The notes under the pieces: generated by a model | Databases searched by the model: none | The model's input: only the letters and a program-made list of their open reading frames with translations | Told to the model about the DNA's origin: nothing | Made by a program: the position numbers and the translations under genes | Assembly: GCF_015207065.1 (NCBI RefSeq) | Contig: NZ_JADEXP010000011.1 | Coordinates: 1 to 43,011, forward strand | Direction of reading: 5' to 3' | DNA length: 43,011 nucleotides | Source: Leptolyngbya cf. ectocarpi LEGE 11479 | Lineage (GTDB): Bacteria > Cyanobacteriota > Cyanobacteriia > Phormidesmidales > Phormidesmidaceae | Shown here: in pieces, positions 1,930 through 37,854 of the stretch | How the letters are laid out: each line of letters begins with the position of its first letter | Position numbering within the stretch: position 1 is the stretch's first letter

Positions 1930-4900
1930 TTGATGAAAATATCAATGGGGCTGAACTCCAGCAAGAACGGTCTGAGTGAGAGCGTTAGAGAGCGGGCTCG
2001 TTGCCAAACTTTGGTAGAGTTGTTGCGGTCTCAAGCTGCTCGGCAGCCTGAGAAAACGGCATATATTTTTCTCCAAGATGGTGAGAGTGAATCGGGTCGC
2101 TTGACCTATTCGGCCTTGGACTGCCAGGCACGTCATATTGCTGCTCAGCTTCAGGCGATCTGTGCTCCTGGTGCTTGTGCTCTCTTGGTATATCCTTCTA
2201 GCCTTGAGTTTATTGCCGCCTTCTTTGGCTGTCTGTATGCCGGTTTAGTGGCGGTGCCTGCCTATCCGCCTCGGGCAAACCAAAATGCGAATCGTCTGCA
2301 GGCAATGTTAGGTGATGCAGGCGCGAGTGTCGTTTTGACGACAACAAAACTTCAACCCCAGCTCCAGTCACGCCTTGAAGAGGACTACGCATCAGTTTTA
2401 TCGCTTCATTGGCTGGCGACCGATGGCAGTCCTGCAAAGCCTCCCCCTGTTTGGCAGGCTCCTGATACTACGGCAACGACGCTAGCCTTTTTGCAATACA
2501 CTTCTGGATCGACCGGTGCCCCCAAAGGAGTGATGCTGAGTCATGGGAATCTAATATATAACGAGCGCATGATTGAGGTAGCCTTTGGCCATACCGATCA
2601 GACTGTTATGGTTAGTTGGTTGCCGCTGCATCATGATATGGGCCTGATTGGCAATGTGCTACAGCCCCTATACTTAGGTATCCCCTGTACTCTGATGCCA
2701 CCTGTGGCCTTCTTGCAAAGGCCAGTGCGGTGGTTACAGGCAATTTCTCGCTATCGGGCAACGACCAGTGGCGCTCCTAATTTTGCCTATGAACTTTGCC
2801 TAAGTCGCATTTCAGCTGAGCAGCGAGCAAACTTAGATTTAAGCAGCTGGGATGTCGCCTACAGTGGGGCGGAGCCAGTGCGCTATGGTACCCTACGACG
2901 GTTTGCTGAGGGGTTTGCAGCTTGCGGGTTCCGTTGGCCATCATTGTATCCGTGCTATGGCATGGCAGAAACTGGTTTGTTGGTGTCGGGGGGCGTAAAA
3001 ACCCAGCCTCCAGTAGTGTTTCCTGCAGAAGGAGAAGCGTTAGCTCAAAACCAGGTAGTCATAGCTAATGAGAGTTCACCTAATCATCAAAGGTCTAATT
3101 GCCAAACGATTGTGGGGTGTGGCCAAACTTGGTTAGAGCAGCAGATTATTATTGTCGATCCTGAGCAGTTAACCCGCTGCCCGCGCGATCAAGTAGGTGA
3201 GATTTGGGTTGCGGGTCCTCATGTTGCCCAGGGCTATTGGCAATGTCCCCAAGAAACCGCAGACACGTTTTATGCCTACACGTCTGACACTGGGGAAGGC
3301 CCCTTTCTGCGGACAGGAGATTTGGGCTTTTTTCAAAATGGTGAACTGTTTGTCACGGGACGGATCAAGGATCTAGTGATCATTCAAGGCCGCAATCACT
3401 ACCCCCAGGATATTGAGCTAACCGTAGAACGAAGTCATCCAGCCTTGCGTGTCTCTGGGGGAGCAGCCTTTGGCATTGAAGTTAATGGTCAAGAACAGTT
3501 AGTCGTAGTTCATGAGGTTGAGCGTCGCTATTTACGCCAGCTGCCATCGGATGAAATTTTTCAGACGATACGACAAGGCGTTTCTGAGCATCATGATTTA
3601 CCGCTGTATGCGGTTCAACTACTCAGGCCCGGCAGTTTGCCAAAAACATCGAGTGGCAAGGTGAAGCGGCGTACTTGTAAAGCTGAGTTTGGACGGGATG
3701 GGTTAAACTCTGTTGCTACCTGGTGCTTAGGTTCAGTTCCTCAGGCCCCAAGTCGAAAGCGTGAGGTGCAGACGGTGGTTACTCCTGGTATTCTCAATGC
3801 TGCAACTATTCGCGATTGGTTGATTGAACAGGTGGCTAGCCAGCTGCATGTCGCTGCCGACGAGATTGATATTCATGAACCCCTGGCACACTATGGCTTA
3901 AGTTCAGCGATCGCTGTTGGTCTATCGGGGCAGCTACAGGATTGGCTGGGTCGGACGGTTTCTCCAGCACTGTTGTACGATTATCCCACCATTGCCAGTT
4001 TGGTTCAGTATTTAGTCAGTGATGCAGTGGCAGTGCCACCACGGCTAGCTCAGGCTCACTCCAGATCTGATGCGCAATCTATGTCCGCTCAGTCAAATGC
4101 CGTTGCCGTCATTGGTGTAGGCTGTCGTTTTCCAGGTGCGCCTAGTCCAGATGCGTTCTGGGAATTATTGCGCACTGGTCAGGATGCTATTGCTCCGGTC
4201 CCCCATCATCGTTGGACGATGGGAGATGGAGGTGCAGCTAACTATTGGGGAGGTTTCTTAAATGGGGTAGATCAGTTTGACGCTGAATTCTTTTCTATTT
4301 CGCCCCGTGAGGCCACCCGTTTGGACCCTCAACAGCGGTTTTTACTGGAGGTGAGTTGGGAGGCATTGGAAAACGCTGGCCTGGCTGCAGAGGCGCTAGC
4401 AGGCACTCAGACAGGCGTATTTGTGGGGATCAGCACTTCAGATTATGGTCATTTACAGCGCCATGACACGGACCAATTAGATGCCTATGTGGGGACCGGA
4501 AGTGCGCTGAGTATGGCCGCTAATCGGCTCTCTTATAGTTTAGATTTGCGGGGCCCCAGTCTGGCGGTTGATACCGCCTGTTCCTCCTCTCTGGTAGCGG
4601 TTCATCAAGCCTGCCAAAGTCTTCGACAGCAAGAATGCTCTCTCGCCCTGGTGGGGGGTGTGAATTTAATGCTGACCCCCGATTTGACAACAGCGTTTTC
4701 GCGGGCTCAGATGATGGCAGCAGATGGTCGTTGTAAGACATTTGATGCCGACGCTGATGGCTACGGGCGGGGTGAAGGATGTGGGGTGGTTGTGCTGAAG
4801 CGGTTGGAGGATGCGATCGCAGACCAAGACACTATACTGTCCGTGATTTTAGGCTCCGCCATTAATCAGGATGGCTGCAGTAATGGCCTGACAGCTCCCA

Positions 4901-7900
4901 ATGGGTTAGCCCAACAAGCTGTGATCGCTCAAGCGATGGCAAACGCTGGAGTGCAACCAGCTCAGGTGAGTTATGTAGAGGCGCATGGCACCGGTACTGC
5001 TCTGGGAGATCCCATTGAGATGGGTGCCCTCAAAGCAGTGCTGATGCAGGGACGAGATCTAAACGCTCCTTGTTGGATTGCATCACTTAAGACCAACATC
5101 GGACATTTAGAAGCCGCTGCAGGTATCGCAGGCTTGATTAAAGGGGTGCTTTCCCTACACCATGAGAAGATTCCACCCCATTTGCACCTCAAGCAGCTAA
5201 ATCCCTACATCAGTTTAGAGGAGACTCCTCTCACCATCCCCACAGTCTTGACAGACTGGCCGAGCGAGACTGGGCGCATTGCCGGGGTCAGTTCCTTTGG
5301 CTTTGGCGGCACCAATGCCCATATTATATTGTCAGATTTCCCTAACTTGATGGTGCCTGGCAATCAAGAGAACGGTAATCAAGAGAGTTCCCCGCCAGAA
5401 CCATCCCACTATCTGCTGACACTATCTGCTAAAGACAATAGTGCACTACGTGCTTTAGCTCAACGATATCGTGAGTATGTGTTTCGTCATCATCCTGAGG
5501 TATCAGTAGCTGATATCTGTTTTAGTGCCCAGACGGGACGATCTCACCTGGTTCATCGTCTGGCGATTGTGCATGACTCATCTGAGCACTTAGGGCAGCA
5601 GCTAGAAGCATTTGTTTGTGGAGAAGAGACCCCTGGCTGTCTAAACAGTATTGGTGAGAGAAAAGCTCAAAAAAACCTTAAAAATCTGTTCAAAATTGGC
5701 TTTCTATTTACCGGTCAAGGGTCTCAGTATGTGGGTATGGGACAACAGCTTTACACCACCCAGCCTGTTTTTCGCCAAGTTCTAGATCAGTGTGCCGAGA
5801 TTTTAGATCCCTGGCTGGATATCCCCTTGTTGAACGTTTTGTACCCTCAGCAATCCCATAGCGGCCCGTCAGCGGCGGCGGATCTGATTCATCAGACCGC
5901 CTACGCACAGCCTGCTCTGTTTGCCTTAGAGTATGCCCTATATCAACTGTGGCGTTCGTGGGGGATTGAAGCCGATGTTGTGATGGGGCACAGCGTCGGT
6001 GAATATGTAGCTGCTTGTGTAGCAGGGGTCTTTAGTCTAGAAGCCGGGTTAAAGCTGATTGTAGCCCGAAGTAGGTTAATGCAGCAGCTACCAGCTGTTG
6101 GAAAGATGGTTTCCCTAATGGCATCGCCAGAGCAGGCTAGAGCAGCTATCTCATCCACGTCTTCGACAGCAGCGGTGGCTATTGCTGCCATTAATGGTCC
6201 CAAAAGTACGGTTGTTTCTGGTAATGCTACCGCCGTACAGTCCTTGGCCGATTACTTTAACAGCCAGGGAATCAAAAGTCGCTTTCTTCAGGTTTCTCAC
6301 GGGTTTCACTCTCCCTTGATGGAACCTATGATCGCGGAGTTTGCTCAGATTGCTCAGCAAATTACCTATGCCCCTCCTCAACTACCCCTGGTTTCCAACG
6401 TCACTGGAGAACTGGCCACTGCTGAGGTTGCAACCCCTGACTATTGGTGTCGTCATATTCTTGCCCCGGTAAACTTTATCGCTGGTATGAGCACTCTGCA
6501 GCAGCAAGGTGTGGAGTGCTTTGTAGAATGTGGACCTCAGCCAATGTTGTTAGGCATGGGGCGGCAGTGTTTATCGGAGGATATGGGAGTCTGGCTGCCT
6601 AGCCTGAGATCAAGAAAAGATGATTGGCAGCAACTGCTCACTAGTCTGGGTGAGTTATACGTGAGAGGTGCAAACGTTGATTGGGTCGGGTTTAACCAGC
6701 ATTACACTCGTCATAAGGTGATGTTGCCCACGTATCCTTTCCAGAGGCAACGATACTGGATTCAAACGTCTGATAGGGGGTCTATAACAAACCCCATGGC
6801 CTCACCCAGTCAAAGTACGTCCATTGTGCACCAGCTAACTCAGGGGAAAACTCAGCAGCTGGCTCAACAGTTGCAGCATACTGGCGCTCTATCCCAAGCC
6901 GAAATGGCTTTAATGCCCAAACTTCTAGACCTGGTAGCTCAACAGCATCAACATCAATTAACCGCAGCCAATGTTCACGATTGGCTGTATCAAGTGCAAT
7001 GGCAATTGTTATCTCCAGCCCGGCTACAGTCTACTGCTGAGCCCAGCCATTGGTTAGTGTTTGCAGACTCAACGGGGGTGGCACCCGTCTTGGCTACTCA
7101 GCTACGACAACGGGGCCATCAGTGCACCCTAGTCTACCAGGCAGAGGATTATCAGCAGCTGGCCCCTGGGACTTATCAGCTTAATCCAGCCAATTCCCAA
7201 TCGTTTGAGAGTCTCTGTCGGGCTGCGATCGCAACCAGCCAACTCCCCTTAAGCCATATCATTCATCTCTGGAGTTTAGATGCTCCATCCAGCGCAGACC
7301 TGACCATCGAGACTTTAGAAAAGTCCCAAGTTCCAGGCTGTGGCAGCGTTCTACACCTGGTGCAGGCTTTAACTAACAATGCTGACATAACGCCCGTTCA
7401 ACTATGGCTTGTAACTCGTGGGAGCCAGTCTGTTCTGTCGTCCCCGACCGCACCATCCCCAACCAAAGCACTTACCATTGCCCAAACTCCACTGTGGGGA
7501 TTGGGTCGCGTCGTCTCGCTAGAACATCCTCAGCTATGGGGGGGGCTGATAGATTTGGACCCTCAGGAGACTCAAGATGAAGTCAGGTTAATGCTTGAGC
7601 AAATTGAATCTCATCTGCCAGAAGAGCACTTAGCGATACGTGCCGGGGCTGTCTATGGTGCCCGATTAGTGCCAAGTCCCTTGCCAGTATCTTCATCCGT
7701 ATGTTTGCGCGCCGATGGCACATATCTAATTACAGGAGGACTAGGAGCCCTGGGTCTTCACACGGCTCAGTGGTTAATAGATAAGGGAGCAAAATATCTA
7801 GTATTAGTCAGTCGTCGTCCTCCAAATGAATCCGCCCAGGCCGCTATTGCTCACCTGCAGCAGCAGGGAACTCAAGTGCTTGCTATGGCAGCGGACGTGT

Positions 7901-8895
7901 CTGTTCAGGCTGATTTGAACAAAGTATTGCAACACATTAAGGCGACTCTTCCGTCTCTAGCAGGAATTATTCATGCTGCTGGAACAGTAGAGATTAAACC
8001 ATTACAACAGATGGAACTTGACCAACTGAAAGCGATAATGCGCCCCAAAGTTTTGGGAGCATGGTTGCTACACCAGCTGACTCAGGAGCAGGAGCTAGAC
8101 TTTTTTATTAGTTTCTCGTCTATTGCAGCAGTATGGGGTTCCTATGGCCAGGCTCACTACAGTGCTGCCAATCATTTTTTAGATGGGTTAGCCCATTATC
8201 GTCAGGCGTTAGGATTAAAGAGTTTTAGTGTCAACTGGGGACCCTGGTCCGATGGTGGCATGTCCGATAAGGTAGTATCTGTCGAGTTACAAAAACGAGG
8301 GGTTAAACCGTTACAACCGGTACAGAATTTGGCGGCTCTAGACCAGATACTTGCCTCTGACAGGACTCAGATAACTGTTACTGATGTTGATTGGAGTTTA
8401 TTTAAACCGCTATACGACTTTGGCAAACAGCGATCGCTTTTAGAGGCTCTAGAGAATTTAGGATTAGCCTCGTCAGTAGCAAATCAGCAAACGGTTATCC
8501 CAAAAAACAATCAACAGGGCGAGCAGATTTTAGCCAGGCTTCAGACAGTAGAAGAGCCCGAAAGATCGGATATTTTAATGCGTCACTTGCAGTCAAAAGT
8601 TGCAACGGTGCTCGGTTTACGCTCCTCTCAATATCCCGATCCTGATAAAGATCTGATCAAATTAGGCATGGATTCTTTGATGGTGGTTGAACTGCAAAAT
8701 TGGTGCCAAAGAGAGCTAGGTATCCACATCCCTATTGTCAAATTTATGCAAGGCGGCAGTCTGAGCGATCTTCTGATTGAGGTGAATCAACAACTGCGAC
8801 AGCTAATAGATGCAGGCTATCCTCAAGACCAAGAGATAAACGCTCAACAATCAATGAATGAGAAGGCTAGTAACTGGATTGAAGTAGAACTATGA
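1930..8895 (+). CDS. Hybrid loading/extension megasynthase: FAAL-ACP-KS-AT-KR-ACP (fatty acid activation plus one malonyl extension, beta-keto reduced)
   Basis: 2321-aa ORF. The track uses TTG 1930; in-frame ATGs at 1933 and 1945 are alternative starts. Ordered motifs: YTSGSTGAPKG (acyl-AMP ligase), HYGLSSA (carrier), DTACSSS / EAHGTGT / NIGHLEAAAG (KS), GHSVGE / HGFHS (AT), GGLGALG / YSAAN (KR), LGMDSL (carrier). No DH, ER or MT motifs. Confidence 0.95.
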   Translation: MMKISMGLNSSKNGLSESVRERARCQTLVELLRSQAARQPEKTAYIFLQDGESESGRLTYSALDCQARHIAAQLQAICAPGACALLVYPSSLEFIAAFFGCLYAGLVAVPAYPPRANQNANRLQAMLGDAGASVVLTTTKLQPQLQSRLEEDYASVLSLHWLATDGSPAKPPPVWQAPDTTATTLAFLQYTSGSTGAPKGVMLSHGNLIYNERMIEVAFGHTDQTVMVSWLPLHHDMGLIGNVLQPLYLGIPCTLMPPVAFLQRPVRWLQAISRYRATTSGAPNFAYELCLSRISAEQRANLDLSSWDVAYSGAEPVRYGTLRRFAEGFAACGFRWPSLYPCYGMAETGLLVSGGVKTQPPVVFPAEGEALAQNQVVIANESSPNHQRSNCQTIVGCGQTWLEQQIIIVDPEQLTRCPRDQVGEIWVAGPHVAQGYWQCPQETADTFYAYTSDTGEGPFLRTGDLGFFQNGELFVTGRIKDLVIIQGRNHYPQDIELTVERSHPALRVSGGAAFGIEVNGQEQLVVVHEVERRYLRQLPSDEIFQTIRQGVSEHHDLPLYAVQLLRPGSLPKTSSGKVKRRTCKAEFGRDGLNSVATWCLGSVPQAPSRKREVQTVVTPGILNAATIRDWLIEQVASQLHVAADEIDIHEPLAHYGLSSAIAVGLSGQLQDWLGRTVSPALLYDYPTIASLVQYLVSDAVAVPPRLAQAHSRSDAQSMSAQSNAVAVIGVGCRFPGAPSPDAFWELLRTGQDAIAPVPHHRWTMGDGGAANYWGGFLNGVDQFDAEFFSISPREATRLDPQQRFLLEVSWEALENAGLAAEALAGTQTGVFVGISTSDYGHLQRHDTDQLDAYVGTGSALSMAANRLSYSLDLRGPSLAVDTACSSSLVAVHQACQSLRQQECSLALVGGVNLMLTPDLTTAFSRAQMMAADGRCKTFDADADGYGRGEGCGVVVLKRLEDAIADQDTILSVILGSAINQDGCSNGLTAPNGLAQQAVIAQAMANAGVQPAQVSYVEAHGTGTALGDPIEMGALKAVLMQGRDLNAPCWIASLKTNIGHLEAAAGIAGLIKGVLSLHHEKIPPHLHLKQLNPYISLEETPLTIPTVLTDWPSETGRIAGVSSFGFGGTNAHIILSDFPNLMVPGNQENGNQESSPPEPSHYLLTLSAKDNSALRALAQRYREYVFRHHPEVSVADICFSAQTGRSHLVHRLAIVHDSSEHLGQQLEAFVCGEETPGCLNSIGERKAQKNLKNLFKIGFLFTGQGSQYVGMGQQLYTTQPVFRQVLDQCAEILDPWLDIPLLNVLYPQQSHSGPSAAADLIHQTAYAQPALFALEYALYQLWRSWGIEADVVMGHSVGEYVAACVAGVFSLEAGLKLIVARSRLMQQLPAVGKMVSLMASPEQARAAISSTSSTAAVAIAAINGPKSTVVSGNATAVQSLADYFNSQGIKSRFLQVSHGFHSPLMEPMIAEFAQIAQQITYAPPQLPLVSNVTGELATAEVATPDYWCRHILAPVNFIAGMSTLQQQGVECFVECGPQPMLLGMGRQCLSEDMGVWLPSLRSRKDDWQQLLTSLGELYVRGANVDWVGFNQHYTRHKVMLPTYPFQRQRYWIQTSDRGSITNPMASPSQSTSIVHQLTQGKTQQLAQQLQHTGALSQAEMALMPKLLDLVAQQHQHQLTAANVHDWLYQVQWQLLSPARLQSTAEPSHWLVFADSTGVAPVLATQLRQRGHQCTLVYQAEDYQQLAPGTYQLNPANSQSFESLCRAAIATSQLPLSHIIHLWSLDAPSSADLTIETLEKSQVPGCGSVLHLVQALTNNADITPVQLWLVTRGSQSVLSSPTAPSPTKALTIAQTPLWGLGRVVSLEHPQLWGGLIDLDPQETQDEVRLMLEQIESHLPEEHLAIRAGAVYGARLVPSPLPVSSSVCLRADGTYLITGGLGALGLHTAQWLIDKGAKYLVLVSRRPPNESAQAAIAHLQQQGTQVLAMAADVSVQADLNKVLQHIKATLPSLAGIIHAAGTVEIKPLQQMELDQLKAIMRPKVLGAWLLHQLTQEQELDFFISFSSIAAVWGSYGQAHYSAANHFLDGLAHYRQALGLKSFSVNWGPWSDGGMSDKVVSVELQKRGVKPLQPVQNLAALDQILASDRTQITVTDVDWSLFKPLYDFGKQRSLLEALENLGLASSVANQQTVIPKNNQQGEQILARLQTVEEPERSDILMRHLQSKVATVLGLRSSQYPDPDKDLIKLGMDSLMVVELQNWCQRELGIHIPIVKFMQGGSLSDLLIEVNQQLRQLIDAGYPQDQEINAQQSMNEKASNWIEVEL
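2008..3690 (+). other. FAAL domain (fatty acyl-AMP ligase)
   Basis: Motifs FLQYTSGSTGAPKGVMLSHGNL, WLPLHHDMGLIG, YGMAETGL, GDLGF...GRIKDLVI..GRN and LPKTSSGKVKR, fused directly to a carrier domain. This is the FAAL architecture rather than a CoA ligase. Confidence 0.9.
3799..4017 (+). other. ACP 1 (loading carrier)
   Basis: LAHYGLSSAIAVGLSGQL. The phosphopantetheine Ser lies in GLSS (about 3901-3906), a variant of GxDS. Confidence 0.8.
4099..5334 (+). other. Ketosynthase (KS)
   Basis: VAVIGVGCRFPGA; active-site Cys in DTACSSSL (codon 4579-4581); EAHGTGTALGDPIE; KTNIGHLEAAAG; GFGGTNAH. Confidence 0.95.
5692..6765 (+). other. Acyltransferase (AT), malonyl-type
   Basis: GFLFTGQGSQYVGMG; catalytic Ser in GHSVGE (codon 5992-5994); HGFHS (6298-6312) at the HAFH/YASH specificity position, closest to the malonyl HAFH form. 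Confidence 0.85.
6976..8265 (+). other. Ketoreductase (structural plus catalytic subdomains), A-type by sequence rules
   Basis: YLITGGLGALG (about 7720-7752). Catalytic Tyr in HYSAAN (8158-8160). Trp eight residues upstream of it (SSIAAVWGSYGQAHY) and no LDD motif (HAAGTVEIKPL) point to an A-type KR, so an L-3-hydroxyl is expected (inference). Confidence 0.8.
8569..8785 (+). other. ACP 2
   Basis: LIKLGMDSLMVVELQN; Ser codon 8674-8676. Confidence 0.9.
8892..8895 (+). promoter_or_regulatory. ATGA stop/start overlap coupling the PKS and NRPS-1 genes
   Basis: The PKS stop TGA (8893-8895) overlaps the NRPS ATG (8892-8894), which suggests translational coupling. Confidence 0.8.
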
Positions 8896-9050
8896 AATTA
8901 GCTGATTTTTTGCAAGATCTATCACTCCAGGGTGTCAAGTTATGGGCAGATGGTGATCGTCTTCGCACGGCTGGTTCTCAGACAGTGTTGACCTCTAATG
9001 TGGTTGAACAGCTCAAGCAACACAAAAGCGCTATCTTGCAGCTGCTCCAC
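8892..9050 (+). other. TubC-type N-terminal docking domain
   Basis: MKLADFLQDLSLQGVKLWADGDRLRTAGSQTVLTSNVVEQLKQHKSAILQLL matches the G(V/I)xLWxxGDxLR...L(T)xxxxxxLxxxKxxILxLL pattern of beta-hairpin docking domains at the N termini of NRPS subunits. Confidence 0.8.
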
Positions 9051-12000
9051 GAGCATCCAAATGTCCTCAACGTTCATCCATTGTCCCATGGTCAACGGGC
9101 GCTTTGGTTTTTGTGGCAGCTAGCCCCAGAAAGTTCTGCGTATAATTTTTCGTTTACAGCACGTATCCATACCGCAATAGATGCGGATACGTGGCGCTCT
9201 CTTTTTCAAATATTAGTTGAGCGCCATTCGATTCTGCGATCTACATTCCCCAATCGTGATGGCGAGCCTTTTCAGCACATTCATCTAAAGCAGGCCGTAG
9301 ATTTCGCTACTATTGATGCATCAACGTGGAGCAATGGACAACTCAATCAAAATCTGATTGCCATCAGCGAAGCTCCGTTTGACCTGGAAACAGAATCTGC
9401 TATGCGAGTAAAATGGATTACTCGCTCGGCCCAAGAGCATGTGTTGCTAATTGTGGCCCACCATATTGTCTTTGATGGTTGGTCGCAGTCTATTCTTTTC
9501 AAAGAACTTGCAACTCTCTATAGAGCTTCCCTGACGGGGAATAACAATGACCATCATACTAGCGCGCACTATTCTAGTAATGGTCATGGCACCAATGGCT
9601 TTAGCACCAATGGTCATAGAATTAATAACAATATTGCTACAGCGCTTGCTCCGCTCGAGCATACCTATCAAGACTATGTAGAGTGGCAAAAATATCTCCT
9701 AGAGAGTGATAAAGGAGAGCAGCTATGGCAGTACTGGCAACAGCAGCTAGCGGGTGATTTACCGATCTTAAATCTACCTACTGACCACCCGCGCCCTCCT
9801 GTAAAAACCTATCGGGGGGCGATGCAGTCCTTTCAGCTAGCGGAGTCTCTCACTCAACACCTGAAAGAATTAGCAAAAACCTCGGGAGTGACTCTTTATG
9901 TGCTTCTGATGGCTGCTTTCCAGATACTGCTACACCGGTATTCTGGTCAAGAAGATATTCTAATAGGATCGCCCTCCCTTGGACGCAGTCAGCTGAAATT
10001 TTCTGAAATTGTGGGCTACTTTGTCGATCCCATGGTTCTCAGGGCGGATCTGTCGGGCAACCCCACGTTTAGCTCATTTTTAACTCAGGTGCGTCAGACA
10101 GTTTTAGATGGTTTAGCCCATCAAGATTATCCGTTTGCTCTGCAGGTAGAACAGCTGCAGCCCCGTCGAGATCCAAGTTACTCACCTATTTTTCAAGCCT
10201 GTTTTACCTATTTGGTGCCACTGCAGGATGCTAAGGGGGAAATTGATTGGGGTGAGCTGGGATTTGAGCCCTTTGAGCTGCCTCGAAACAGGAGTCAGTT
10301 TGACTTGCACTTAGAAATGTCGGAGGTAGATGTCTCTTTGGTTGGAGGGATTGAATATAGCACCGATCTCTTCAACCGAGAGTCAATTGAACGGATGGTG
10401 ACTCATTTCCAAACATTATTAGCTTCAATTGTTGCCAACCCTGAACAGAGGCTAAGGCAGCTTTCCTTGCTGCCAAAGTCAGAATATCAGCAGCAGCTGA
10501 TTGAATGGAATAATACGGTTACATCCTATCCAACAGCGCAATGTATCCACCAGTTGTTTGAAGCTCAGGTGGAGAGAACCCCAACTGCAGTAGCTGTAAA
10601 TTTCAATACGCAGCAGCTTACCTACCAAACATTAAACCAGCGGGCTAATCAGCTAGCTCATTATTTACAGACATTGGGAGTAGGTCCAGAAGTTCTGGTG
10701 GGTATTTACGTAGAGCGCTCCCCCAATATGATGGTGGGATTGTTGGGGATTCTTAAGACTGGGGGAGCCTATGTTCCTCTCGATCCCGGCTACCCAAAAG
10801 AGCGAATAACATACATGCTTCAGGACTCTGCAGCCTCTGTGGTGCTGACTCAGCAAACATTGGTGGCAGATTTACCCGATGTTAGTGCTCAAGTTATTTG
10901 TCTTGACACGGACTGGGCCAAAATTGCTGACGGCAGTGATAAAAATGTTAAAGGTGATGCACAGCCCGCTAATTTGGCCTATGTCATCTACACTTCGGGT
11001 TCTACAGGCCAGCCTAAGGGGGTTGAGATCCTGCATCAAGGGTTAATGAACTACCTGTGCTGGTGTACTCAAACCTATCGTGTTTCCGAGGGGGCGGGTG
11101 CATTAGTTCATTCCTCTATCGGGTTTGATGCGACCATTACCGGCCTATTTTCACCGTTGCTGGTTGGAAAAACGGTCTTTTTACTGCCAGAGGATGAGGG
11201 GATTGAGGGGCTGGCCGCAGCGTTACAGACAGACAACAATTTTAGTTTGGTGAAATTAACACCAGCCCACCTTAAGGCGCTTGGCTCTCTCATTCCGGTA
11301 AAACGCCTAACTCAACAGACGAGGGCCTTAGTGATTGGGGGAGAAGCCTTAGTAAAGGATGTGATTGCTCCCTGGTTGATCCATGCTCCAAATACCCGAT
11401 TAATTAATGAATATGGACCGACGGAAACAGTGGTGGGCTGCTGCATTTATGAAGTTGACTCCTATGAGAGTCTCACAGAGCCTATTCCCATTGGTCGCCC
11501 CATTGCCAATACCAAACTCTATATCTTAGATTCTCAACTACAGCCACTGCCAACAGGTGTTCCAGGAGAATTATGCATCGGTGGAGAGGGTGTAGCTCGC
11601 GGCTATAGAAACCGACCAGAGTTGAGTGCTGAGAAATTTATTAGCAATCCTTTTGGCTCAGGGCGTCTCTATAAGACGGGGGATCTAGCCCGCTATCGCC
11701 CGGATGGCAATGTTGAATATCTGGGTCGAATTGATCATCAGGTAAAGATTCGGGGATTTCGGATTGAATTGGGCGAAATTGAGGCTATCCTCAACGATCA
11801 TGCTCAGCTTCAGCAGGCAGTGGTCATTGCTCGAGAAGATCACACTGGAGATAAACAGCTGGTAGCTTATGTGGTCAGCACATCTTCTCTTATTCCGGAG
11901 GAGCTACGAGATTTTTTGAAGGCACAGTTGCCAGAATATATGGTGCCAGATGTGTTTGTGCAACTGCCAGATTTGCCCCTGACCGCTAATGGAAAAGTTG

Positions 12001-23861: not shown

Positions 23862-23977
23862 CGTGCTCATTTTTTTGAGGCCCTACTCATAACTTGAAAA
23901 AGCATTAGCCACAGCCAAGTTTCTATCAACTATAGAGGCGCGACAATAACGCTTCTAAACAAAATCAAATATTTCTG

Positions 23978-23989: not shown

Positions 23990-24031
23990 TTTACGTTGTA
24001 ACTCAGTTTTTATATTTGGAGCCTTGCAAAA

Positions 24032-25084: not shown

Positions 25085-25159
25085 TGATAAAGGGAGTTTA
25101 TTAGCTTAGTTATATAGCCTTACGTTGTTATCTCAAGTCTAACTATATTAGGTTTTTCT

Positions 25160-26167: not shown

Positions 26168-26251
26168 TCCTCTCCTACATGATTTTTTCCTACCTAACCG
26201 CTAACTCACAAATGCTTTCTGTTCATCATAAATAATTGCCAAGCCAATTCC

Positions 26252-30499: not shown

Positions 30500-31231
30500 T
30501 TGAGTTATTTCCACTCCCTATCAAGACTGGATTTCCTAGGCATTCTGGGGGGTATGGGTCCGTTAGCCTCTGCTGAATTTCTCAAGACTATTTATGAATA
30601 CAGTCTGACGGGGGAGTCTGAGCAGGAATCACCCAGGGTTGTAGTATATTCTGATCCCACATTACCTGATAGAACTCAAATACTTTTGAGTGGCGAAAGT
30701 GAACCATTACTGAGTAAGCTTATCGAAGCATTACATCAGCTGAGTGAACTCAAAGCAAGAAGAATAATCATCTGTTGCGTTACGTCTCACTATCTACTTG
30801 CCAAACTTCCTGCTGACTTGCAAGAACGCATTATTTGTCTGGTAGACATTATTCTCAGTAATATTATTGAGCAAAAAAAAAAGCATCTTTTACTCTGTAC
30901 AACAGGTACCCGTCGGCTCAAGATATTTTCACAGCATCCCCTATGGGGCCAGGCTAAGGAGTACATTATACTGCCAGATGATTCGGATCAACAGACTGTA
31001 CATAACATGATATACCAAATTAAAACTAACGGTATATCAATACCGGTCGCGTATCAGCATGCAGAGTGTTTAGCCATGAAATACAATGCTGATTCGGTCA
31101 TTGCTGGCTGTACAGAACTACATTTATTAAGTAAGTTTTCTATAAATGGGGGTGAGTTTCAAGCAAAACAAGATATTCAGATTACCTTTTTCGATCCTTT
31201 AGTGCATATTGCTCAAAGCCTTGCGTCGTGA
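30500..31231 (+). CDS. Asp/Glu/hydantoin-racemase-family protein, aspartate-racemase-like (McyF-like)
   Basis: LGILGGMGPLASAEFLKTIYE at the N terminus. Two catalytic-Cys contexts: IICCVTSHYLL and IAGCTELHLL (GCTE). About 240 aa, typical of PLP-independent two-Cys racemases. Confidence 0.8.
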   Translation: MSYFHSLSRLDFLGILGGMGPLASAEFLKTIYEYSLTGESEQESPRVVVYSDPTLPDRTQILLSGESEPLLSKLIEALHQLSELKARRIIICCVTSHYLLAKLPADLQERIICLVDIILSNIIEQKKKHLLLCTTGTRRLKIFSQHPLWGQAKEYIILPDDSDQQTVHNMIYQIKTNGISIPVAYQHAECLAMKYNADSVIAGCTELHLLSKFSINGGEFQAKQDIQITFFDPLVHIAQSLAS

Positions 31232-31241
31232 CCTCTAACAA

Positions 31242-32273
31242 ATGAAAAAATCTAAGCCATCTATAGCCTCCATCAATGTTGAAAAAGTTAAGTTGGGATA
31301 TCTACAAGTAGATCAACAGCCCCCTTTAGTCATAGAGCCGACTAGTGACGATCTGGATTTAGTATCCTGGGCCAATGATAACCAGGGGCTTATAGAAAGC
31401 CAGCTTGACACCTATGGTGCTCTTCTATTTCGAGGCTTTAAGCTACCTTCTCCAACCACTATGTTAGAACAATTCGCACTGACAAATTGTTCAGATCTAT
31501 TTGACGACAATGGCGAGCATCCCCGTGAAGCCTTAGGTAGTAAAGTTTATACTCCTGTTTTTTATCCCAACGACAAGAAGATTTTCTGGCACAACGAGAA
31601 CTCGTTTAATCGGCGTTCGCCCATGAGAATTTGGTTTTGCTGTCTACAACCATCAGAGCAAGGAGGAGAGACTCCTATTGTTGATAGCCGTGAAGTCTAT
31701 AACCTAATCGATCCTGAAATTAGATCAGAATTTGAGCAAAAACAAATAAAGTATATCCGCAATTACAATCCGCAACTAGGACTTTCTTGGCAAAAGATTT
31801 TTCAAACAACTGATAAAAAAGAAGTTGAAGAAAAATGCAAAGATAATCTAATGTCGTTTGAATGGAAAGAAGGGGATCGTCTGCAGACAACCTGCATTCG
31901 TCCATCGGTGGTGAAACATCCAAGGACAGGTGAAAAGTCGTGGTTTAATCAGGCACAACATTGGCATTTATACTTTCTAGATCCAATTACCCGTGAGGTT
32001 TTTTCGTCGTCTTTTTCTGAAGATGAGCTACCACGTAACTGTTGCTATGGTGATGGATCGCCTATTCCAGATGCTGTTATGGAAGCTGTCGAAAAGGTAT
32101 ATCAGAAGCTGGAGATCAGTTTCTCCTGGCAGAAAGAAGATATCTTGATGCTAGATAATATCCTTATGGCCCACGCTCGTAATCCGTTTGTTGGAGAAAG
32201 AAAGCTCTTAGTGACGATGGGGAAAACGTTTCAATATGATCATTGTACTACTGCTCAAGACAATGCGCCTTAA
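31242..32273 (+). CDS. TauD/TfdA / clavaminate-synthase-like Fe(II)/2-oxoglutarate oxygenase; candidate Asp/Asn beta-hydroxylase
   Basis: YGALLFRGF; HxE metal motif in FWHNENSF; distal His/Arg in LMAHARNPF. About 340 aa and positioned inside an NRPS operon, as for SyrP/AsnO-type amino-acid beta-hydroxylases. Confidence 0.75.
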   Translation: MKKSKPSIASINVEKVKLGYLQVDQQPPLVIEPTSDDLDLVSWANDNQGLIESQLDTYGALLFRGFKLPSPTTMLEQFALTNCSDLFDDNGEHPREALGSKVYTPVFYPNDKKIFWHNENSFNRRSPMRIWFCCLQPSEQGGETPIVDSREVYNLIDPEIRSEFEQKQIKYIRNYNPQLGLSWQKIFQTTDKKEVEEKCKDNLMSFEWKEGDRLQTTCIRPSVVKHPRTGEKSWFNQAQHWHLYFLDPITREVFSSSFSEDELPRNCCYGDGSPIPDAVMEAVEKVYQKLEISFSWQKEDILMLDNILMAHARNPFVGERKLLVTMGKTFQYDHCTTAQDNAP

Positions 32274-32365: not shown

Positions 32366-35300
32366 ATGACACTTTCAGCAGTTTCGGAAGACGTTTACAT
32401 TTATCCGTTATCTTTTGCTCAAGAGCATCTCTGGTTTTTGCAACAGGCAAACCCAGAGAGCGTAGCCTACAATATGACTTACGCGCTCCGCCTGCAAGGC
32501 AATCTGAATGTGTCAGCATTAGAGTGTGCTATTCAAACTATCTACACACGTCATGAAACCCTGCGCACCAGTATTGAAATGGTCGATGGCTTTGCCATGC
32601 AGGTCATTTCTCCAGCTGTTGCTATGTCTCTTCCTTTTATCGATCTGAGCACCCTTTCCTCAACTGATGCTATGGGCGAGGTAAAGCGGTTAGCCATTGA
32701 TCAAGAAACAACCTGCTTTAATCTAGCTCAAGAGGTCCTAATCCGAGTTCAGCTGTTACGATTGGCGGACACTGATCATGTACTGTTGCTAACGCTACAC
32801 CATATTATTGCAGATGGCTGGTCTATTGGTATAATTATTCAAGAGACTTCTACATTGTATTCAGCATATTTCCAGGGCAAGCCACCTGCGCTACCTGAAC
32901 TGCCGATTCAATATGGAGATTTTTCAGATTGGCAGCGTGATTGGTTGTCAGGCCCCGTTCTTCAGAAACTGCTCACCTATTGGACTAGTCAATTAGCTGG
33001 CGTACCTACATTACTAGAATTGCCTAGCGATCGCACGTACCCGGCAATCCGAACGGCTCAAGGTCGTACCGAAAAGTTTGTTGTTGATCCAACTTTAGCT
33101 CTGCAGCTCAAAACATTAGCTCAACGGCAGCAGGTGACTTTGTTTATGTTACTGTTGGCTGCATTTGGCACCCTGTTGTTTCGTTATAGTGAGCAGCAAG
33201 ATATGGTGATTGGTACGTCGATTGCCAATCGTACCCGGCCAGAATTTGAGCCATTAATCGGCTTTTTTGTGAATACGTTAGCTTTAAGACTCCAGTTTCA
33301 AGAGATTTCAACATTTCAAGATCTCTTAGATCAGGTGCGTCAAGTAAGTTTGGGTGCTTATGAACATCAGGATTTACCCTTTGCCCATGTGGTTGAAGCA
33401 CTTGATTTGGAGCGATCGCTGAGCCATAGTCCTCTAGTTCAGGTTATGTTTCTACTGCAGAATGCTTCTAGTGAGCAGTTAGAATTGCCAGGGCTAACGC
33501 TATCTTCCCTTGAGTTTGAAGAAACAAGAGCCAGATTTGATCTTACCCTGTCAGTGCAAGAAACAGCTGCGGGGCTGCAGGGGCAATGGGAATACAGTAC
33601 CGATCTATTTGAAGCAGAGACTATTCGTCGTATGATCGTTCACTTTCATACGCTCCTAGAAGGCATTGTTGATAATCCTCAAGAACTGCTGGATCAGCTA
33701 CCACTGTTGCCAAAACCAGAGTCTCAGAAGTTATTAAAAGAGTGGAACGATACGGCTGTTGATTATCCCAAAGAGCGTTGTATCCACCAGCTTTTTGAAG
33801 CCCAGGTAGAGAAAACTCCAAAGGCAGTTGCTGTTGAATTTAATACTCAGCAGCTGACTTACGAGGTATTGAATCAGCGGGCTAATCAACTGGCACGTTA
33901 TCTGCAAACTGTGGGAGTTGGGCCGGAGATCTTAGTAGGGATTTGTGTTGAAAGATCCCTTGATATGATAGTGGGCTTGTTAGGAATTCTCAAGGCAGGG
34001 GGGGGCTATGTTCCCATGGATCCTAGCTATCCTAAGAAACGTCTGATCTACATGTTGCAAGATTCTGCAGCATCAGTTTTGTTGACTCAACAAAAAATAC
34101 AAGAGAGTTTCTCTCAGTCAGGTGTTCATACAATCTGCCTCGATTTAGACTGGCCTAAAATTGCTGACCATGGGAGTGGCAATGTTGAGAGTACTATTAA
34201 CTCCAACAACTTGGCCTATGTTATTTATACCTCCGGCTCCACAGGAAAACCGAAAGGAGTTGAGGTTATCCATCAAGGTTTGACTAACTATCTATGCTGG
34301 TGTGTTCAACACTATGATATTGCCAGGGGATCTGGGGCACTAGTTCATACTCCGCTTGGATTCGATGCAACTATTACGGGACTCTTTTCTCCTCTTTTGG
34401 TGGGTCGAACAGTATTTTTACTCCCAGAGGATCAGGGGATCAGCGCCTTGGCAGGCGCTTTACAGCAGGGAAATAATTTTAGTTTAGTTAAGTTGACACC
34501 CGCTCATCTAAAGCTTCTTAGTTCTCTTATTCCAGCGGAAAAACTAGCTCAACAGGCACACGTTTTTGTGATTGGCGGAGAAGCCTTGATGAAAGACATG
34601 ATTTCTCCCTGGTTGACCCATGCTCCAAATACAAGACTGATCAATGAATATGGGCCAACTGAAACTGTGGTTGGATGCTGTATTTACGAGGCTAATGCCC
34701 ATAAAGCTTTAGCAGATCTGATTCCTATCGGTCGTCCTATTGCCAATACTCAACTCTATATTTTAGATTCTCGGCTACACCCTTTACCTATTGGGGCTGT
34801 GGGAGAATTATACATAGGTGGAGACGGGGTAGCCCGAGGGTATCGGGGGTTGCCAGAACTAAGTGCTGAGAAGTTTATGGCTAACCCCTTTGGGTTAGGT
34901 CGTCTTTACAGGACGGGAGATCTAGCTCGCTATTTGCCTGATGGAAATGTTGAATTCCTCGGACGTATTGACAATAGCGTGAAGCTTCGGGGTTTTCGGA
35001 TTGAATTAGGAGAGATTGAAGCGGTTCTGTCTGCCCATCCTCATATCCAACAAGTCAGCGTAATTGTTCGAGAAGATCACCCAGAGGACAAGCGGCTAGT
35101 CGCCTATGTGGTGAACCAACATATACAGCTCTCCTCAATAGAGCTACGTGACTTTCTCAAGGCTCAGCTGCCTGATTACATGTTGCCTAATACTTTTATG
35201 CAACTGGACGCTTTACCCCTGACTCCTAATGGTAAAGTCGATCGAAATGCCTTGCCCTCACCGGAAAGCCTGTCGGGACCATCCCGTGTATCGACTCCGC

Positions 35301-36340
35301 CTCGCAATCAGATGGAATTAAAACTGGCCCGCATTTGGTCAGACGTGCTCAAGGTAGATCAGATCGGGATGGAGGATGATTTCTTTGAATTGGGAGGTCA
35401 TTCTCTGATAGCGCTGGCTCTGATGGCACGCATTAAGGAAATGTTAGGCTACACACTACCGTTCAATACTCTGTTTCAAGAAGCAACCATTGAACAGCAA
35501 GCTATGCTTTTGGAGCAAAACGTTGATCCGCAGGCATGGACTCCTTTGACACCTCTACAACCCCAGGGTAGTCACCCTCCCTTATTCTTGATTCATCCTG
35601 GCGGTGGAAGTGTGCTGTGTTACCAGAGACTGATGCCATATTTAGGTCAGCAAAGAGCACTTTATGGGCTAGAAACAAGGGGGTTCATTCCAGGGCAGTC
35701 CCCACGCACGAGTATTGAAGCGATGGCCACAGACTACATTCAATCTATCCAAGTGTTACAGCCTACCGGGCCTTATCACTTGGCTGGCTGGTGTTTGGGA
35801 GGAATGATTGCCTGGGAGGTTGCACAGCAACTGATGATCCAGGGGCAACACGTTTCTCGTCTCATCTTTATTGATGTTAATTCGTCAATGGCGGGTGATC
35901 AAATTCCTGAGCCGACCGATTTACTGGCGGGTATGGTTGGTCAAGCTTTAGACTTATCTGCAGTTGATCTAGAGGTGCTGACTAAACATTTGCAGTCTAT
36001 GAATTGGGAGGATCAGCTTGCCTATGTTATCTCAGAGGCAGAACATCGAAATTTTCCGCTCAGTCCAGGGTTTGGGATGGCGCAATTGGACAGTATTGTG
36101 CAAATTAGGCGGGGGCACATTCAGGCTGCACAGAGCTATGTGCCTAAGCCTTATCCGGGTGAGGTAGTCCTACTACAAGCTGAGGGGGGAGTTGCCGCAC
36201 GGGCTGATGATCCTACGCTTGGCTGGCAGGCTTTAGCTCAGAAGACAACGCTTCACTGGGTTCCTGGAAATCATTTATCTATGATGCGAGAACCCCATGT
36301 CAAAGTGCTGGGGCAATACTTCAAGAAATATTTAGATTAA
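32366..36340 (+). CDS. NRPS-3 (1324 aa): C-A(Asn)-PCP-TE, terminal module
   Basis: See the domain features. It begins directly with the C domain (MTLSAVSEDVYIYPLSFAQEHLWF). Confidence 0.95.
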   Translation: MTLSAVSEDVYIYPLSFAQEHLWFLQQANPESVAYNMTYALRLQGNLNVSALECAIQTIYTRHETLRTSIEMVDGFAMQVISPAVAMSLPFIDLSTLSSTDAMGEVKRLAIDQETTCFNLAQEVLIRVQLLRLADTDHVLLLTLHHIIADGWSIGIIIQETSTLYSAYFQGKPPALPELPIQYGDFSDWQRDWLSGPVLQKLLTYWTSQLAGVPTLLELPSDRTYPAIRTAQGRTEKFVVDPTLALQLKTLAQRQQVTLFMLLLAAFGTLLFRYSEQQDMVIGTSIANRTRPEFEPLIGFFVNTLALRLQFQEISTFQDLLDQVRQVSLGAYEHQDLPFAHVVEALDLERSLSHSPLVQVMFLLQNASSEQLELPGLTLSSLEFEETRARFDLTLSVQETAAGLQGQWEYSTDLFEAETIRRMIVHFHTLLEGIVDNPQELLDQLPLLPKPESQKLLKEWNDTAVDYPKERCIHQLFEAQVEKTPKAVAVEFNTQQLTYEVLNQRANQLARYLQTVGVGPEILVGICVERSLDMIVGLLGILKAGGGYVPMDPSYPKKRLIYMLQDSAASVLLTQQKIQESFSQSGVHTICLDLDWPKIADHGSGNVESTINSNNLAYVIYTSGSTGKPKGVEVIHQGLTNYLCWCVQHYDIARGSGALVHTPLGFDATITGLFSPLLVGRTVFLLPEDQGISALAGALQQGNNFSLVKLTPAHLKLLSSLIPAEKLAQQAHVFVIGGEALMKDMISPWLTHAPNTRLINEYGPTETVVGCCIYEANAHKALADLIPIGRPIANTQLYILDSRLHPLPIGAVGELYIGGDGVARGYRGLPELSAEKFMANPFGLGRLYRTGDLARYLPDGNVEFLGRIDNSVKLRGFRIELGEIEAVLSAHPHIQQVSVIVREDHPEDKRLVAYVVNQHIQLSSIELRDFLKAQLPDYMLPNTFMQLDALPLTPNGKVDRNALPSPESLSGPSRVSTPPRNQMELKLARIWSDVLKVDQIGMEDDFFELGGHSLIALALMARIKEMLGYTLPFNTLFQEATIEQQAMLLEQNVDPQAWTPLTPLQPQGSHPPLFLIHPGGGSVLCYQRLMPYLGQQRALYGLETRGFIPGQSPRTSIEAMATDYIQSIQVLQPTGPYHLAGWCLGGMIAWEVAQQLMIQGQHVSRLIFIDVNSSMAGDQIPEPTDLLAGMVGQALDLSAVDLEVLTKHLQSMNWEDQLAYVISEAEHRNFPLSPGFGMAQLDSIVQIRRGHIQAAQSYVPKPYPGEVVLLQAEGGVAARADDPTLGWQALAQKTTLHWVPGNHLSMMREPHVKVLGQYFKKYLD
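32393..33720 (+). other. Condensation domain C6 (LCL-like)
   Basis: YPLSFAQEHLWFLQQ; LHHIIADGWS (32806-32832); IQYGDFSDWQ. Confidence 0.9.
33790..35263 (+). other. Adenylation domain A6, predicted Asn (close paralog of A1)
   Basis: LAYVIYTSGSTGKPKG; GFDATITGLF; VKLTPAHL; FVIGGEA; NEYGPTETVVGCC; NGKVDR. The code read by eye is DATKVGEVGK (Asn), identical to A1. Confidence 0.85.
35299..35516 (+). other. PCP6
   Basis: FFELGGHSLIALALMARIK; Ser codon 35402-35404. Confidence 0.9.
35539..36337 (+). other. Type I thioesterase with Cys nucleophile
   Basis: PLFLIHPGGGSVLCY. The nucleophile elbow is LAGWCLGG, with TGT (Cys) at 35792-35794 where GxSxG is expected. Also LIFIDV (Asp) and VPGNHLSMM (His). 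Confidence 0.9.
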
Positions 36341-36483: not shown

Positions 36484-37854
36484 ATGACAGAGAAACTATT
36501 AACAGCCACAGAAAAGCCAATTGCCAAGGGCATGGGTGTATTTATATCCATTTGGCTGGGGTCATTTGTCTCGTTAATGGGTAAGCGCTTAACTAGCTTT
36601 GCTTTGAATATTTGGATTCTCCAAACGACGGACTCGATCAATTTCTACACACTGGGAGTTTTGATTACAACATTACCGGCTCTTTTTTTAGCTCCTTTTT
36701 TCGGTAGCTTAGTCGATCGCTGGCCACGGCGGTGGGTAATGATCATTTCTGAGATTGGGTCTGGCCTATGTATTTTGGCCCTTGCCCTTTTGTTTATTAT
36801 GGACTCCTTAAAGCTCTGGCATTTATTCGTTTTGACAGGGCTCAATGCTGCTTTTATAGAAGTGGATACGCTGGCGTTTCAGTCTGCTGTTAGTTTGATT
36901 GTGCCGTCAGAAGAGTTACCTCGTGCAAGTGGGTTTACTCTCTTGGGTTCGGCTATTGCTCGACTGCTAGCTCCTGTTTTAGCTGGAGCTTTAATAGTCA
37001 TTATTCAGATACAGGGTATTTTACTAATTGATTGCGCTAGTTTTTTTATGGGTCTAATCCCCTTGCTTTTGTTCCGATTACCAGAAGTAGATATAGCGTT
37101 GCTCGAGGGTGATAAAGAACATATTTCTCTAGGAGCGCAGCTCAATCAGGGGTGGACGTATTTAACTAGTCAATCAGGACTGTTTAGCTTAATGACGCTA
37201 CGAGCAGTTTATACATTTGTCTCTACAGCTGGAATTCTGTTATTTGTTCCTATGCTGCTAAAGTTGACCACGCCTGTGGCTTTGGGGAGTTCTATGTTTG
37301 TTGTGGGTCTGGGGGGCGTAGTTGGAGGAGTTTTGATGGGGACTTGGGCTAATCGTCAAGAACAACTCATGCCATTAGTATTTGGCTGTATGTTTTTTAC
37401 CAGTTTGGCGGCGATCGCAAGTGGATTACGCCCATCTTTGGGGCTCATTATAGCTGCAGCATTTTTCTTCCTCTTGAATTTTCCTCTAATTACAGGGTCT
37501 ATTCAGGTTATTTTTCAGAGGCAGGTATCCCCTGAACTGCAGGGACGTATTTTTGCCCTGAGTAATGCGTTTGTTGCGATCGCAACTATTGCTGCAATTG
37601 TCTTTAGCTCCGTGGTGGATCAGCTTCTAGAACCAATGATGATTTTTGAAGGACCCTGGGCCAACGGAATTGGCCAAATTATTGGTACTGGACCAGGTCG
37701 AGGCATTGGCTTAATGTACATTATGCTAGGCGTAATGACTATGCTAATCACCATAATTGCTTATCAACATGTACCCTTGGTAAATATTGAGCAAGAAACT
37801 GAAATCTACAGTCAACCTTGCCTCGCACTCTCCGATTTAGACGTAACAAAGTAG
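36484..37854 (+). CDS. MFS transporter, EntS-like / MFS_3 family (probable product exporter)
   Basis: 456 aa, hydrophobic throughout (about 12 helices). The loop 2-3 motif GSLVDRWPRRWVM matches the GxxxDRxxRR signature of this exporter family. Confidence 0.8.
   Translation: MTEKLLTATEKPIAKGMGVFISIWLGSFVSLMGKRLTSFALNIWILQTTDSINFYTLGVLITTLPALFLAPFFGSLVDRWPRRWVMIISEIGSGLCILALALLFIMDSLKLWHLFVLTGLNAAFIEVDTLAFQSAVSLIVPSEELPRASGFTLLGSAIARLLAPVLAGALIVIIQIQGILLIDCASFFMGLIPLLLFRLPEVDIALLEGDKEHISLGAQLNQGWTYLTSQSGLFSLMTLRAVYTFVSTAGILLFVPMLLKLTTPVALGSSMFVVGLGGVVGGVLMGTWANRQEQLMPLVFGCMFFTSLAAIASGLRPSLGLIIAAAFFFLLNFPLITGSIQVIFQRQVSPELQGRIFALSNAFVAIATIAAIVFSSVVDQLLEPMMIFEGPWANGIGQIIGTGPGRGIGLMYIMLGVMTMLITIIAYQHVPLVNIEQETEIYSQPCLALSDLDVTK

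Follow-up and report, generated by a model that had tools for sequence, protein, structure and literature searches.

A candidate acidic lipopeptide gene cluster with a split adenylation domain in Leptolyngbya cf. ectocarpi LEGE 11479

In this study, we analyzed a 43,011-nucleotide stretch of the genome of Leptolyngbya cf. ectocarpi LEGE 11479 (contig NZ_JADEXP010000011.1, positions 1 to 43,011; hereafter the window), which is nearly the whole contig of 43,012 bp and carries a co-directional cluster of fatty acyl-AMP ligase (FAAL), polyketide synthase (PKS) and nonribosomal peptide synthetase (NRPS) genes on the plus strand at 1930-37854 (∼36 kb). Ten large plus-strand open reading frames (ORFs) span 1930-40405, and a convergent sbcC is truncated by the contig end. 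Three of the encoded proteins (ORF C, SbnA and ORF D) are each 100% identical to an NCBI protein of this strain. Approximately 34 kb of uninterrupted multidomain ORFs makes a chance feature impossible, and the ORFs outside one split domain are all intact. The upstream stretch (1-1929) is AT-rich, its largest ORF reaches at most 107 aa, and no Rfam match was found in it; since the contig stops 1.9 kb 5′ of the first gene (ORF A), the left border of the cluster is unproven. We put at roughly 60% the probability that this is an intact orphan hybrid FAAL-PKS/NRPS cluster making an acidic lipo-hexapeptide and related in its logic to the cyanochelins. The kind to which it belongs, the orphan hybrid cluster, is well known; what sets it apart is a conserved, selected and apparently mobile split adenylation (A) domain with nested genes for 2,3-diaminopropionate (Dap).

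The assembly line and its predicted product

ORF A (1930-8895), the loading and PKS protein, was resolved by Pfam and motifs into FAAL (2026-3705), acyl carrier protein (ACP; 3814-4014), ketosynthase (KS; 4096-5190), acyltransferase (AT; 5701-6675), ketoreductase (KR; 7717-8253) and a second ACP (8593-8802). The KS keeps its catalytic motifs DTACSS and EAHGTG intact, the AT has GHSVG together with HGFH, which varies HAFH and is of the malonyl type, and the KR, which is without LDD and retains the A-type Trp, is of the A type. The FAAL would adenylate a fatty acid and load it onto the ACP, and one malonyl extension with reduction would then give a 3-hydroxyacyl chain.

Six NRPS modules are distributed over three proteins, and their Stachelhaus specificity codes were read by alignment to GrsA-PheA. 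ORF B (8892-23861, 4989 aa; Pfam on the whole protein and on segments, and core motifs) opens with a TubC_N docking domain (8904-9053). Module 1 (9069-12275) is organized as condensation (C) domain, A domain and peptidyl carrier protein (PCP) with the code DATKVGEVCK. Its C domain holds an Asn-, His- and Gly-rich insertion of ∼35 residues (GNNNDHHTSAHYSSNGHGTNGFSTNGHRINNN; ∼9555-9660, ORF B residues ∼222-255), which lies ∼25 residues past the HHIVFDG motif and breaks the Pfam domain match in two. Module 2 (12354-16805, code DLYNLSLISK) combines a heterocyclization (Cy) domain (motifs DALLADAAS, LPPAP, GDFT and QTPQVWLD), an A domain, a PCP and a flavin mononucleotide-dependent oxidase (Ox; motifs RQSYRQF and YPSAG), whose core (16092-16349, a Nitroreductase Pfam match) is inserted between A8 and A10 of the A domain. 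By these domains, the product of module 2 would be a thiazole, formed from Cys by cyclization and oxidation. Thiazole modules of the EpoB and bleomycin type likewise run Cy-A-Ox-PCP and receive an acetyl or beta-Ala unit from the upstream donor. Module 2 has the same order, the placing of Ox between A8 and A10 and the motifs RxSxRxF and YPSAG, and the donor in our case would instead be N-acyl-Asn.

Module 3 (16884-21446, code DLTKIGHVVK) is a C-A-PCP module closed by an epimerization (E) domain with the motifs HHLVVDGVS, TVGWFT and NYLG. The C domain that follows it (21537-22877, HHHILMDGWC) shares only 26-29% identity with the other four C domains, whereas those share 34-48% among themselves; such an outlier after an E domain fits the type that joins a D- to an L-residue (DCL). 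Module 4 is completed by a Dap-type A domain in two parts, of which the N-terminal one (A1-A5, DIWQVTADD; 22935-23858) ends ORF B and the C-terminal one (A6-A10, with Lys517; 26252-26803) starts ORF C (26252-30445, Pfam), and by a PCP in ORF C (26897-27067, PP-binding). Module 5 (C-A-PCP, 27161-30304, code DARHFSLMVK) fills the remainder of ORF C. ORF D (32366-36340; Pfam and motifs) has the layout C-A-PCP-thioesterase (TE) and contains module 6 (32399-35503), whose code DATKVGEVCK is that of module 1, followed by the TE (35579-36322). The codes for Asn (modules 1 and 6), Cys (module 2) and Asp (module 3) are canonical, the full code of module 4 (DIWQVTADDK) would be read as Dap, and module 5 is probably of an iso-Asp type. 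The line thus brings together FAAL plus ACP, KS-AT-KR-ACP, colinear C-A-PCP modules and a release domain, which places it among hybrid FAAL-PKS/NRPS lipopeptide clusters.

Further genes of the cluster are an McyF-like Asp racemase gene (30500-31231; Pfam Asp_Glu_race and PDB match), a stand-alone TauD-family Fe/2-oxoglutarate beta-hydroxylase gene (31242-32273; Pfam TauD), a gene for an EntS/Mef-like major facilitator superfamily (MFS) efflux transporter (36484-37854; Pfam and NCBIfam), and the pair sbnA and sbnB considered below. An earlier note on this DNA had given the domain order from the FAAL to a Cys-type TE, including the split Dap A domain, together with racemase, oxygenase and MFS genes. 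Pfam, motifs and specificity codes reproduced that order exactly and at the same coordinates, all of these genes were present, and codes and domains led independently to the same colinear order of product units. The enzymes and their sequence along the line are read from the DNA itself; what is said of the molecule is prediction. The colinear product would be 3-hydroxyacyl-Asn-(thiazole-4-carbonyl)-D-Asp-Dap-X-Asn, in which the six modules add Asn, Cys (converted to the thiazole), Asp (converted to the D-form), L-Dap, an acidic residue (X, from the D-x-R-H-type A domain) and Asn. The MFS pump would export the product.

The statement of the earlier note that the line matches no known compound family also held as far as the searches went. 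Among 5.8 billion proteins searched, the closest relatives of ORF C reached 61% identity (a European Nucleotide Archive (ENA) metagenome contig, L001; ERZ26696392, contig_88) and 60% (a metagenome-assembled genome (MAG) of Symploca), and that of ORF D 55% over part of its length, most other matches being generic two-module NRPSs; 61% was the highest ORF-level identity found anywhere. A first scan of genome contigs with ORF C gave no relative, and an exact-sequence look-up of the TauD ORF gave no match, probably because of a differing start-codon call. The literature on LEGE 11479 yielded no publication on its cluster or product. The cluster described here differs from those of cyanochelin B and C, lusichelin and fatuamide; the latter two follow unrelated logic, being polythiazol(in)e-polyketide and salicylate-primed, respectively.

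A split adenylation domain with nested Dap genes

Two genes, sbnA (24032-25084) and sbnB (25160-26167), fill the 2.4-kb gap between the halves of the module 4 A domain. Both proteins score above their NCBIfam equivalog cut-offs, SbnA with TIGR03945 (351.3 bits against 349.95) and SbnB with TIGR03944 (403.2 bits against 326.9), as expected of the SbnA/SbnB Dap pathway, which is known from staphyloferrin B and also from L-alanosine (PMC8264950). By these assignments, sbnA would encode the pyridoxal phosphate enzyme of the first step of L-2,3-diaminopropionate synthesis and sbnB the NAD-dependent enzyme of the second, so that Dap would be made in situ.

The specificity code agrees with such a supply. 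A scan with the joined A domain sequence of module 4, taking one genome per species, returned 77 loci, in which all A domains were recovered unsplit and none exceeded 53% identity. Where the code was DIWE[LI]TADDK, sbnAB lay within 6 kb in five of six cases, and with other codes in 0 of 71, which indicates that the code family tracks Dap supply. This association, together with the nested sbnA and sbnB, is why we read module 4 as a Dap module. In the usual layout, seen in Scytonematopsis, Aetokthonos, Tolypothrix and others, sbnAB adjoin an NRPS gene with an intact A domain of that code and stand outside it (5′ of the NRPS gene in four loci, 3′ in one), whereas here they are nested between the A halves. 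SbnA of the window shares 33-40% identity with SbnA of those genomes and ∼50% with Firmicute SbnA. The loci with sbnAB beside an NRPS gene were L015, L019, L027, L033 and L034, with the pair downstream in L033; in L015 and L019 the NRPS gene by sbnAB begins directly with an A domain, and one sbnAB-NRPS record bears the label Rhizobium sp. MAG, perhaps through an error of binning. Literature searches on links between SbnA/B and NRPSs in cyanobacteria found no description of a product or cluster.

The break itself is precise. ORF B terminates with ...NAYGPAECSDDVTHQLIYHH*, and ORF C opens with MKFRTVPVGRPVINTQIYILD (MKFRTVPVGRP...). On the AMP-binding profile of 384 positions the ORF B fragment covers 1-328 and the ORF C fragment 341-384, followed by AMP-binding_C. 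Alignment to PheA set the break ∼13 residues after A5 and before A6, inside the large subdomain, with no residue missing. The break may fall at a beta-hairpin turn between two strands, as a structural model suggests.

The same arrangement recurs in L001, where ORF B stops and ORF C restarts (MKFRTVPVGRPIINT) at identical points and sbnA and sbnB again lie in between. Window positions 22865-26838 and L001 form one continuous block of 3989 nt at 83% DNA identity, ending just past A10, while the modules flanking the block are ∼65% identical to L001. By the Nei-Gojobori method, the ratios of nonsynonymous to synonymous substitution (dN/dS) against L001 were 0.12 for the N-terminal half, 0.09 for sbnA, 0.05 for sbnB and 0.15 for the C-terminal half, with dS of 0.6-0.8 (0.6-0.7 for the two halves), whereas dS was saturated (>2.4) for the neighboring A domain of module 5 and for the racemase. 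The ratios of 0.12 and 0.15 and the conserved break indicate that the two halves have both persisted as functional coding sequence. Because the cassette is more similar to L001 than its flanks are, it should have a more recent common ancestor, which points to exchange as a unit; the order A(N)-sbnA-sbnB-A(C) thus seems to be conserved and exchanged as one cassette.

Beyond this pair the arrangement is rare, L001 being the only other carrier of the split that was found. No other SbnA above 65% identity was found among the 5.8 billion proteins besides a 1.6-kb fragment (L014), whose SbnA is 90% identical and which is too short to show the presence of the split. JGI metagenomes, scanned with degenerate DNA for the motif MKFRTVPVGRP that opens ORF C, gave 0 matches. 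The nearest SbnA relatives outside the cassette (60-65% identity) belong to the metagenome contigs L003-L006 (for example L003, 6442-9680), which carry compact operons of sbnA, sbnB and Haem_oxygenas_2, a heme-oxygenase-like oxidase, without an NRPS; these operons look like a small Dap-derived pathway.

We slightly favor the view that this is a naturally split Dap A domain, cut between A5 and A6 at the hairpin turn, whose two polypeptides (one closing ORF B, the other opening ORF C) reassemble non-covalently, and that the nested sbnA and sbnB make it a "specificity plus precursor" cassette recombining between assembly lines. Several observations weigh against this. For an A domain severed within its large subdomain, reassembly without a covalent link has no demonstrated precedent. 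An AlphaFold model of the concatenated halves, built on an alignment of five sequences, reached a mean predicted local distance difference test score (pLDDT) of 72 and fell below 60 at the junction. In L001, moreover, the PCP-C region directly 3′ of the cassette (4100-5256) shows several reading-frame changes, which may be long-read assembly error or recent decay. The lack of precedent and the frame changes would equally suit a decaying cluster, in which insertion of sbnA and sbnB broke the A domain of module 4, so that the line stalls or yields only a truncated acyl-Asn-thiazole-D-Asp. A scan for the A5-region motif of A domains of the Dap/2,4-diaminobutyrate (Dab) type also fits such decay: it gave 122 matches in 120 loci, of which two ran off a contig end and 120 read through the break site, so that 0 of the 120 readable past the site were split. 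Nevertheless, decay is improbable in our judgment: purifying selection on both halves is as strong as on sbnA and sbnB at dS 0.6-0.8, two loci agree in break point, stop and start, the junction lacks no residues, the other ∼34 kb of ORFs are intact, and a search for direct or inverted repeats and mobile-element scars flanking sbnAB found none that convinced.

A naturally split A domain has been described in corallorazine biosynthesis, where Crz1/Crz2 activity requires both proteins and the authors regarded theirs as the first such report (PMC11342130); it was the sole experimentally shown case that we found in the literature. Both systems encode one A domain on two genes. In corallorazine, however, the Acore (plus a methyltransferase) is separated from the small Asub at A8/A9 and the two genes are adjacent, whereas here the break lies at A5/A6 (profile positions 328/341), inside the large subdomain, with two unrelated biosynthetic genes between the parts, so that the Dap domain is not a split of the corallorazine type. 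Set beside it, the domain of the window would, if functional as proposed, add a second kind of working split A domain, one that differs in mechanism.

Module 5, the hydroxylase and the release domain

The racemase gene begins 55 nt past the end of ORF C, and its product has McyF as best PDB match (E 1e-42). An McyF-like racemase thus stands beside module 5, as in the incorporation of D-iso-Asp in microcystin. The D-A-R-H start of the module 5 code is one that we take to be the signature of the second A domain of McyB; the rest of the code, FSLMVK, differs from microcystin. Eight other NRPSs of cyanobacteria carry exactly the code DARHFSLMVK, and it adjoins a racemase in two relatives, L001 and L013. 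A variant module (DARHFAFLVK) in L002 adjoins an Asp/Arg hydroxylase, and a PhyH gene lies beside the module in L011 and L013. Most likely, residue 5 would be D-Asp supplied by the racemase and joined via its beta-carboxyl; the Arg and His of the code could bind the alpha-carboxylate, leaving the side-chain carboxyl to be adenylated. It weighs against the link between DARH and McyB that literature searches for DARH and other A-domain codes found nothing.

The loci L013 (ENA ERZ26696514, a 2.5-Mb contig) and L011 (GCA_035298905.1) have both the DARHFSLMVK module and the Cys-TE clade in common with the window. L013 starts with a PKS aminotransferase and L011 with FAAL-PKS, and PhyH and JmjC hydroxylases and an Acyl_transf_3/SGNH gene accompany them. 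Clusters of this type look like members of one mosaic family whose lipopeptide lines are undescribed.

The TauD protein would hydroxylate one carrier-bound Asp or Asn at the beta position. The terminal Asn module may be the site, as favored by gene position, or the Asp-E module, as favored by analogy with the cyanochelin hydroxylases CcsK and CcsL.

The TE carries GWCLG with the catalytic Cys1143 (35792-35794), which confirms the Cys nucleophile claimed in the earlier note, but the residue is less exotic than was implied. Of the 150 TE representatives nearest to it, 27 (18%) carry Cys and 120 Ser, and the five nearest all have Cys and come from clusters with the DARHFSLMVK module or from the L001 family. 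The best solved match, AB3403 of Acinetobacter baumannii (PDB 4ZXH, E 2.8e-32), is also a Cys enzyme, shares the GWCxGG nucleophile motif and resembles ORF D in C-A-PCP-TE layout and size. ObiF was absent from the PDB matches of the TE at E≤0.01. Cys in 27 of 150, Cys in AB3403 and the missing ObiF match together show that the residue is characteristic of the clade and does not by itself mark four-membered-ring chemistry.

In ObiF (beta-lactone) and SulM (beta-lactam), Cys is required for ring formation. The TE of the window shares that residue, and the TauD gene lies directly 5′ of the terminal Asn module, so one can conceive of a beta-lactone closed by the TE from a C-terminal beta-hydroxy-Asn. 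We hold this to be very improbable, given AB3403 as best solved relative, the share of Cys among the nearest TEs and the last modules of the closest Cys-TE relatives, which have the codes DVGEVGSICK or DLFNNCLVYK and are Orn/Lys-like or Ala-like, not beta-hydroxy. No sequence affinity of the TE to the ObiF/SulM type thus emerged, and a beta-hydroxy or beta-amino last residue is not conserved across the clade. In the lipo-hexapeptide reading, the Cys-TE would release the chain by hydrolysis or macrocyclization.

Directly after the MFS gene, 92 nt 3′ of it, begins the gene of an 819-aa protein (37946-40405, plus strand) in which several transmembrane helices at the N-terminus are joined to an alpha/beta-hydrolase core (GHSRGG) and a ∼300-aa C-terminal domain of no assigned family. 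Its top solved relative is "protein-asparaginase" 9xg1 (E 8e-17), it belongs to no NCBIfam family, and tblastn against plasmids returned nothing informative. The hydrolase could act on the Asn-rich product, its position being the sole tie to the cluster. Prodrug processing of the ClbN/ClbP type was considered and rejected: this hydrolase has an alpha/beta-hydrolase fold and not that of the S12 peptidases, and module 1 has no E domain to give an N-acyl-D-Asn, while its carbonyl is consumed by the next Cy domain.

Relation to the cyanochelins and possible roles

By sequence comparison, the closest characterized system is cyanochelin B, whose cluster lies on plasmid 2 of Leptolyngbya sp. NIES-3755 (AP017310.1; PMC12628792). 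ORF A shares 55% identity over 1609 aa with CcsA (BAU16016), the FAAL-ACP-KS-AT start of that line, the Cy-A(Cys) part of module 2 is 53% identical to BAU16014, and the TauD protein is 45% identical to the NRPS-fused hydroxylase, whereas the remaining modules stay at the 30-45% identity generic for NRPSs. The two clusters also share an Asp module with an E domain (code DLTKIGHVGK there, DLTKIGHVVK here), an MFS gene, the co-directional layout and a host from the Leptolyngbyaceae. Cyanochelin B alone has two PKS genes with C-methyltransferase and oxygenase, a methyl-thiazoline in place of a thiazole (there is no Ox domain), modules for Phe, Gly and Ser, two beta-hydroxy-Asp modules served by separate hydroxylases, reductive release and an adjacent TonB-type transporter cassette. 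Conversely, it is without Dap, sbnAB, the racemase with its DARH module, Asn and a Cys-TE, all of which are present or predicted in the cluster of the window.

The cyanochelin family is defined by two beta-hydroxy-Asp residues and an adjacent uptake cassette. The present cluster falls outside that definition, having one TauD gene, one canonical Asp code and a terminal module that specifies Asn. On the 43-kb contig the MFS gene is the only transporter gene, and the flanks consist of the 1.9-kb non-coding stretch and sbcC. No TonB-dependent receptor or Fur gene was found on the contig, and a scan with the Fur-box consensus gave shuffle-level counts only, with no match 5′ of ORF A.

The cyanochelin-like start, the lineage of the hydroxylase and the carboxylate, amine and thiazole donors suggest an amphiphilic metallophore of cyanochelin-like logic, a role to which we give a little under even odds. 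Two points weigh against it: a siderophore role is weakened by the lack of uptake and Fur elements on the contig together with the single hydroxylase and the single canonical Asp module, and the stand-alone TauD lacks the separate C-like partner found beside its closest homologue. The same line might instead make a non-siderophore bioactive lipopeptide (antibiotic, cytotoxin or surfactant), the Cys-TE macrocyclizing it via the Dap amine or the acyl 3-hydroxyl. This tentative alternative, which we rate as possible at clearly less than even odds, would account for the absence of iron-uptake and regulation genes and of a Fur-box excess from the contig. Beta-hydroxy-Asp hydroxylases also occur in non-metallophores, turnercyclamycin being a known false positive (PMC12971057), and the relatives with the DARH module and Cys-TE clade carry beta-amino-fatty-acid starts and JmjC/PhyH genes, not iron genes. 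On the other hand, the closest homologues of the TauD protein and of the FAAL-PKS and Cy modules are found in cyanochelin-type or FetB/Fur-linked clusters; the best plasmid-borne relative of the TauD protein, itself stand-alone and 60% identical, belongs to an NRPS cluster of Nostoc in which FetB and Fur genes also occur. A ring closed by Dap would span three residues only. In addition, since the contig ends 1.9 kb 5′ of ORF A, transport genes may lie elsewhere in the genome.

If the split A domain is confirmed as functional, it would offer a natural template for plug-in NRPS engineering, with a new natural split point and a concrete case of the exchange of a module together with its precursor supply. 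The predicted scaffold is without a described counterpart, and as the strain is cultured and publicly held, the prediction can be tested directly. For the organism, the cluster would represent a dedicated 2,3-diaminopropionate sink in a marine Leptolyngbya, and as such it may bear on the long debate about Dap as a precursor of BMAA (beta-N-methylamino-L-alanine) in cyanobacteria (PMC9414260).

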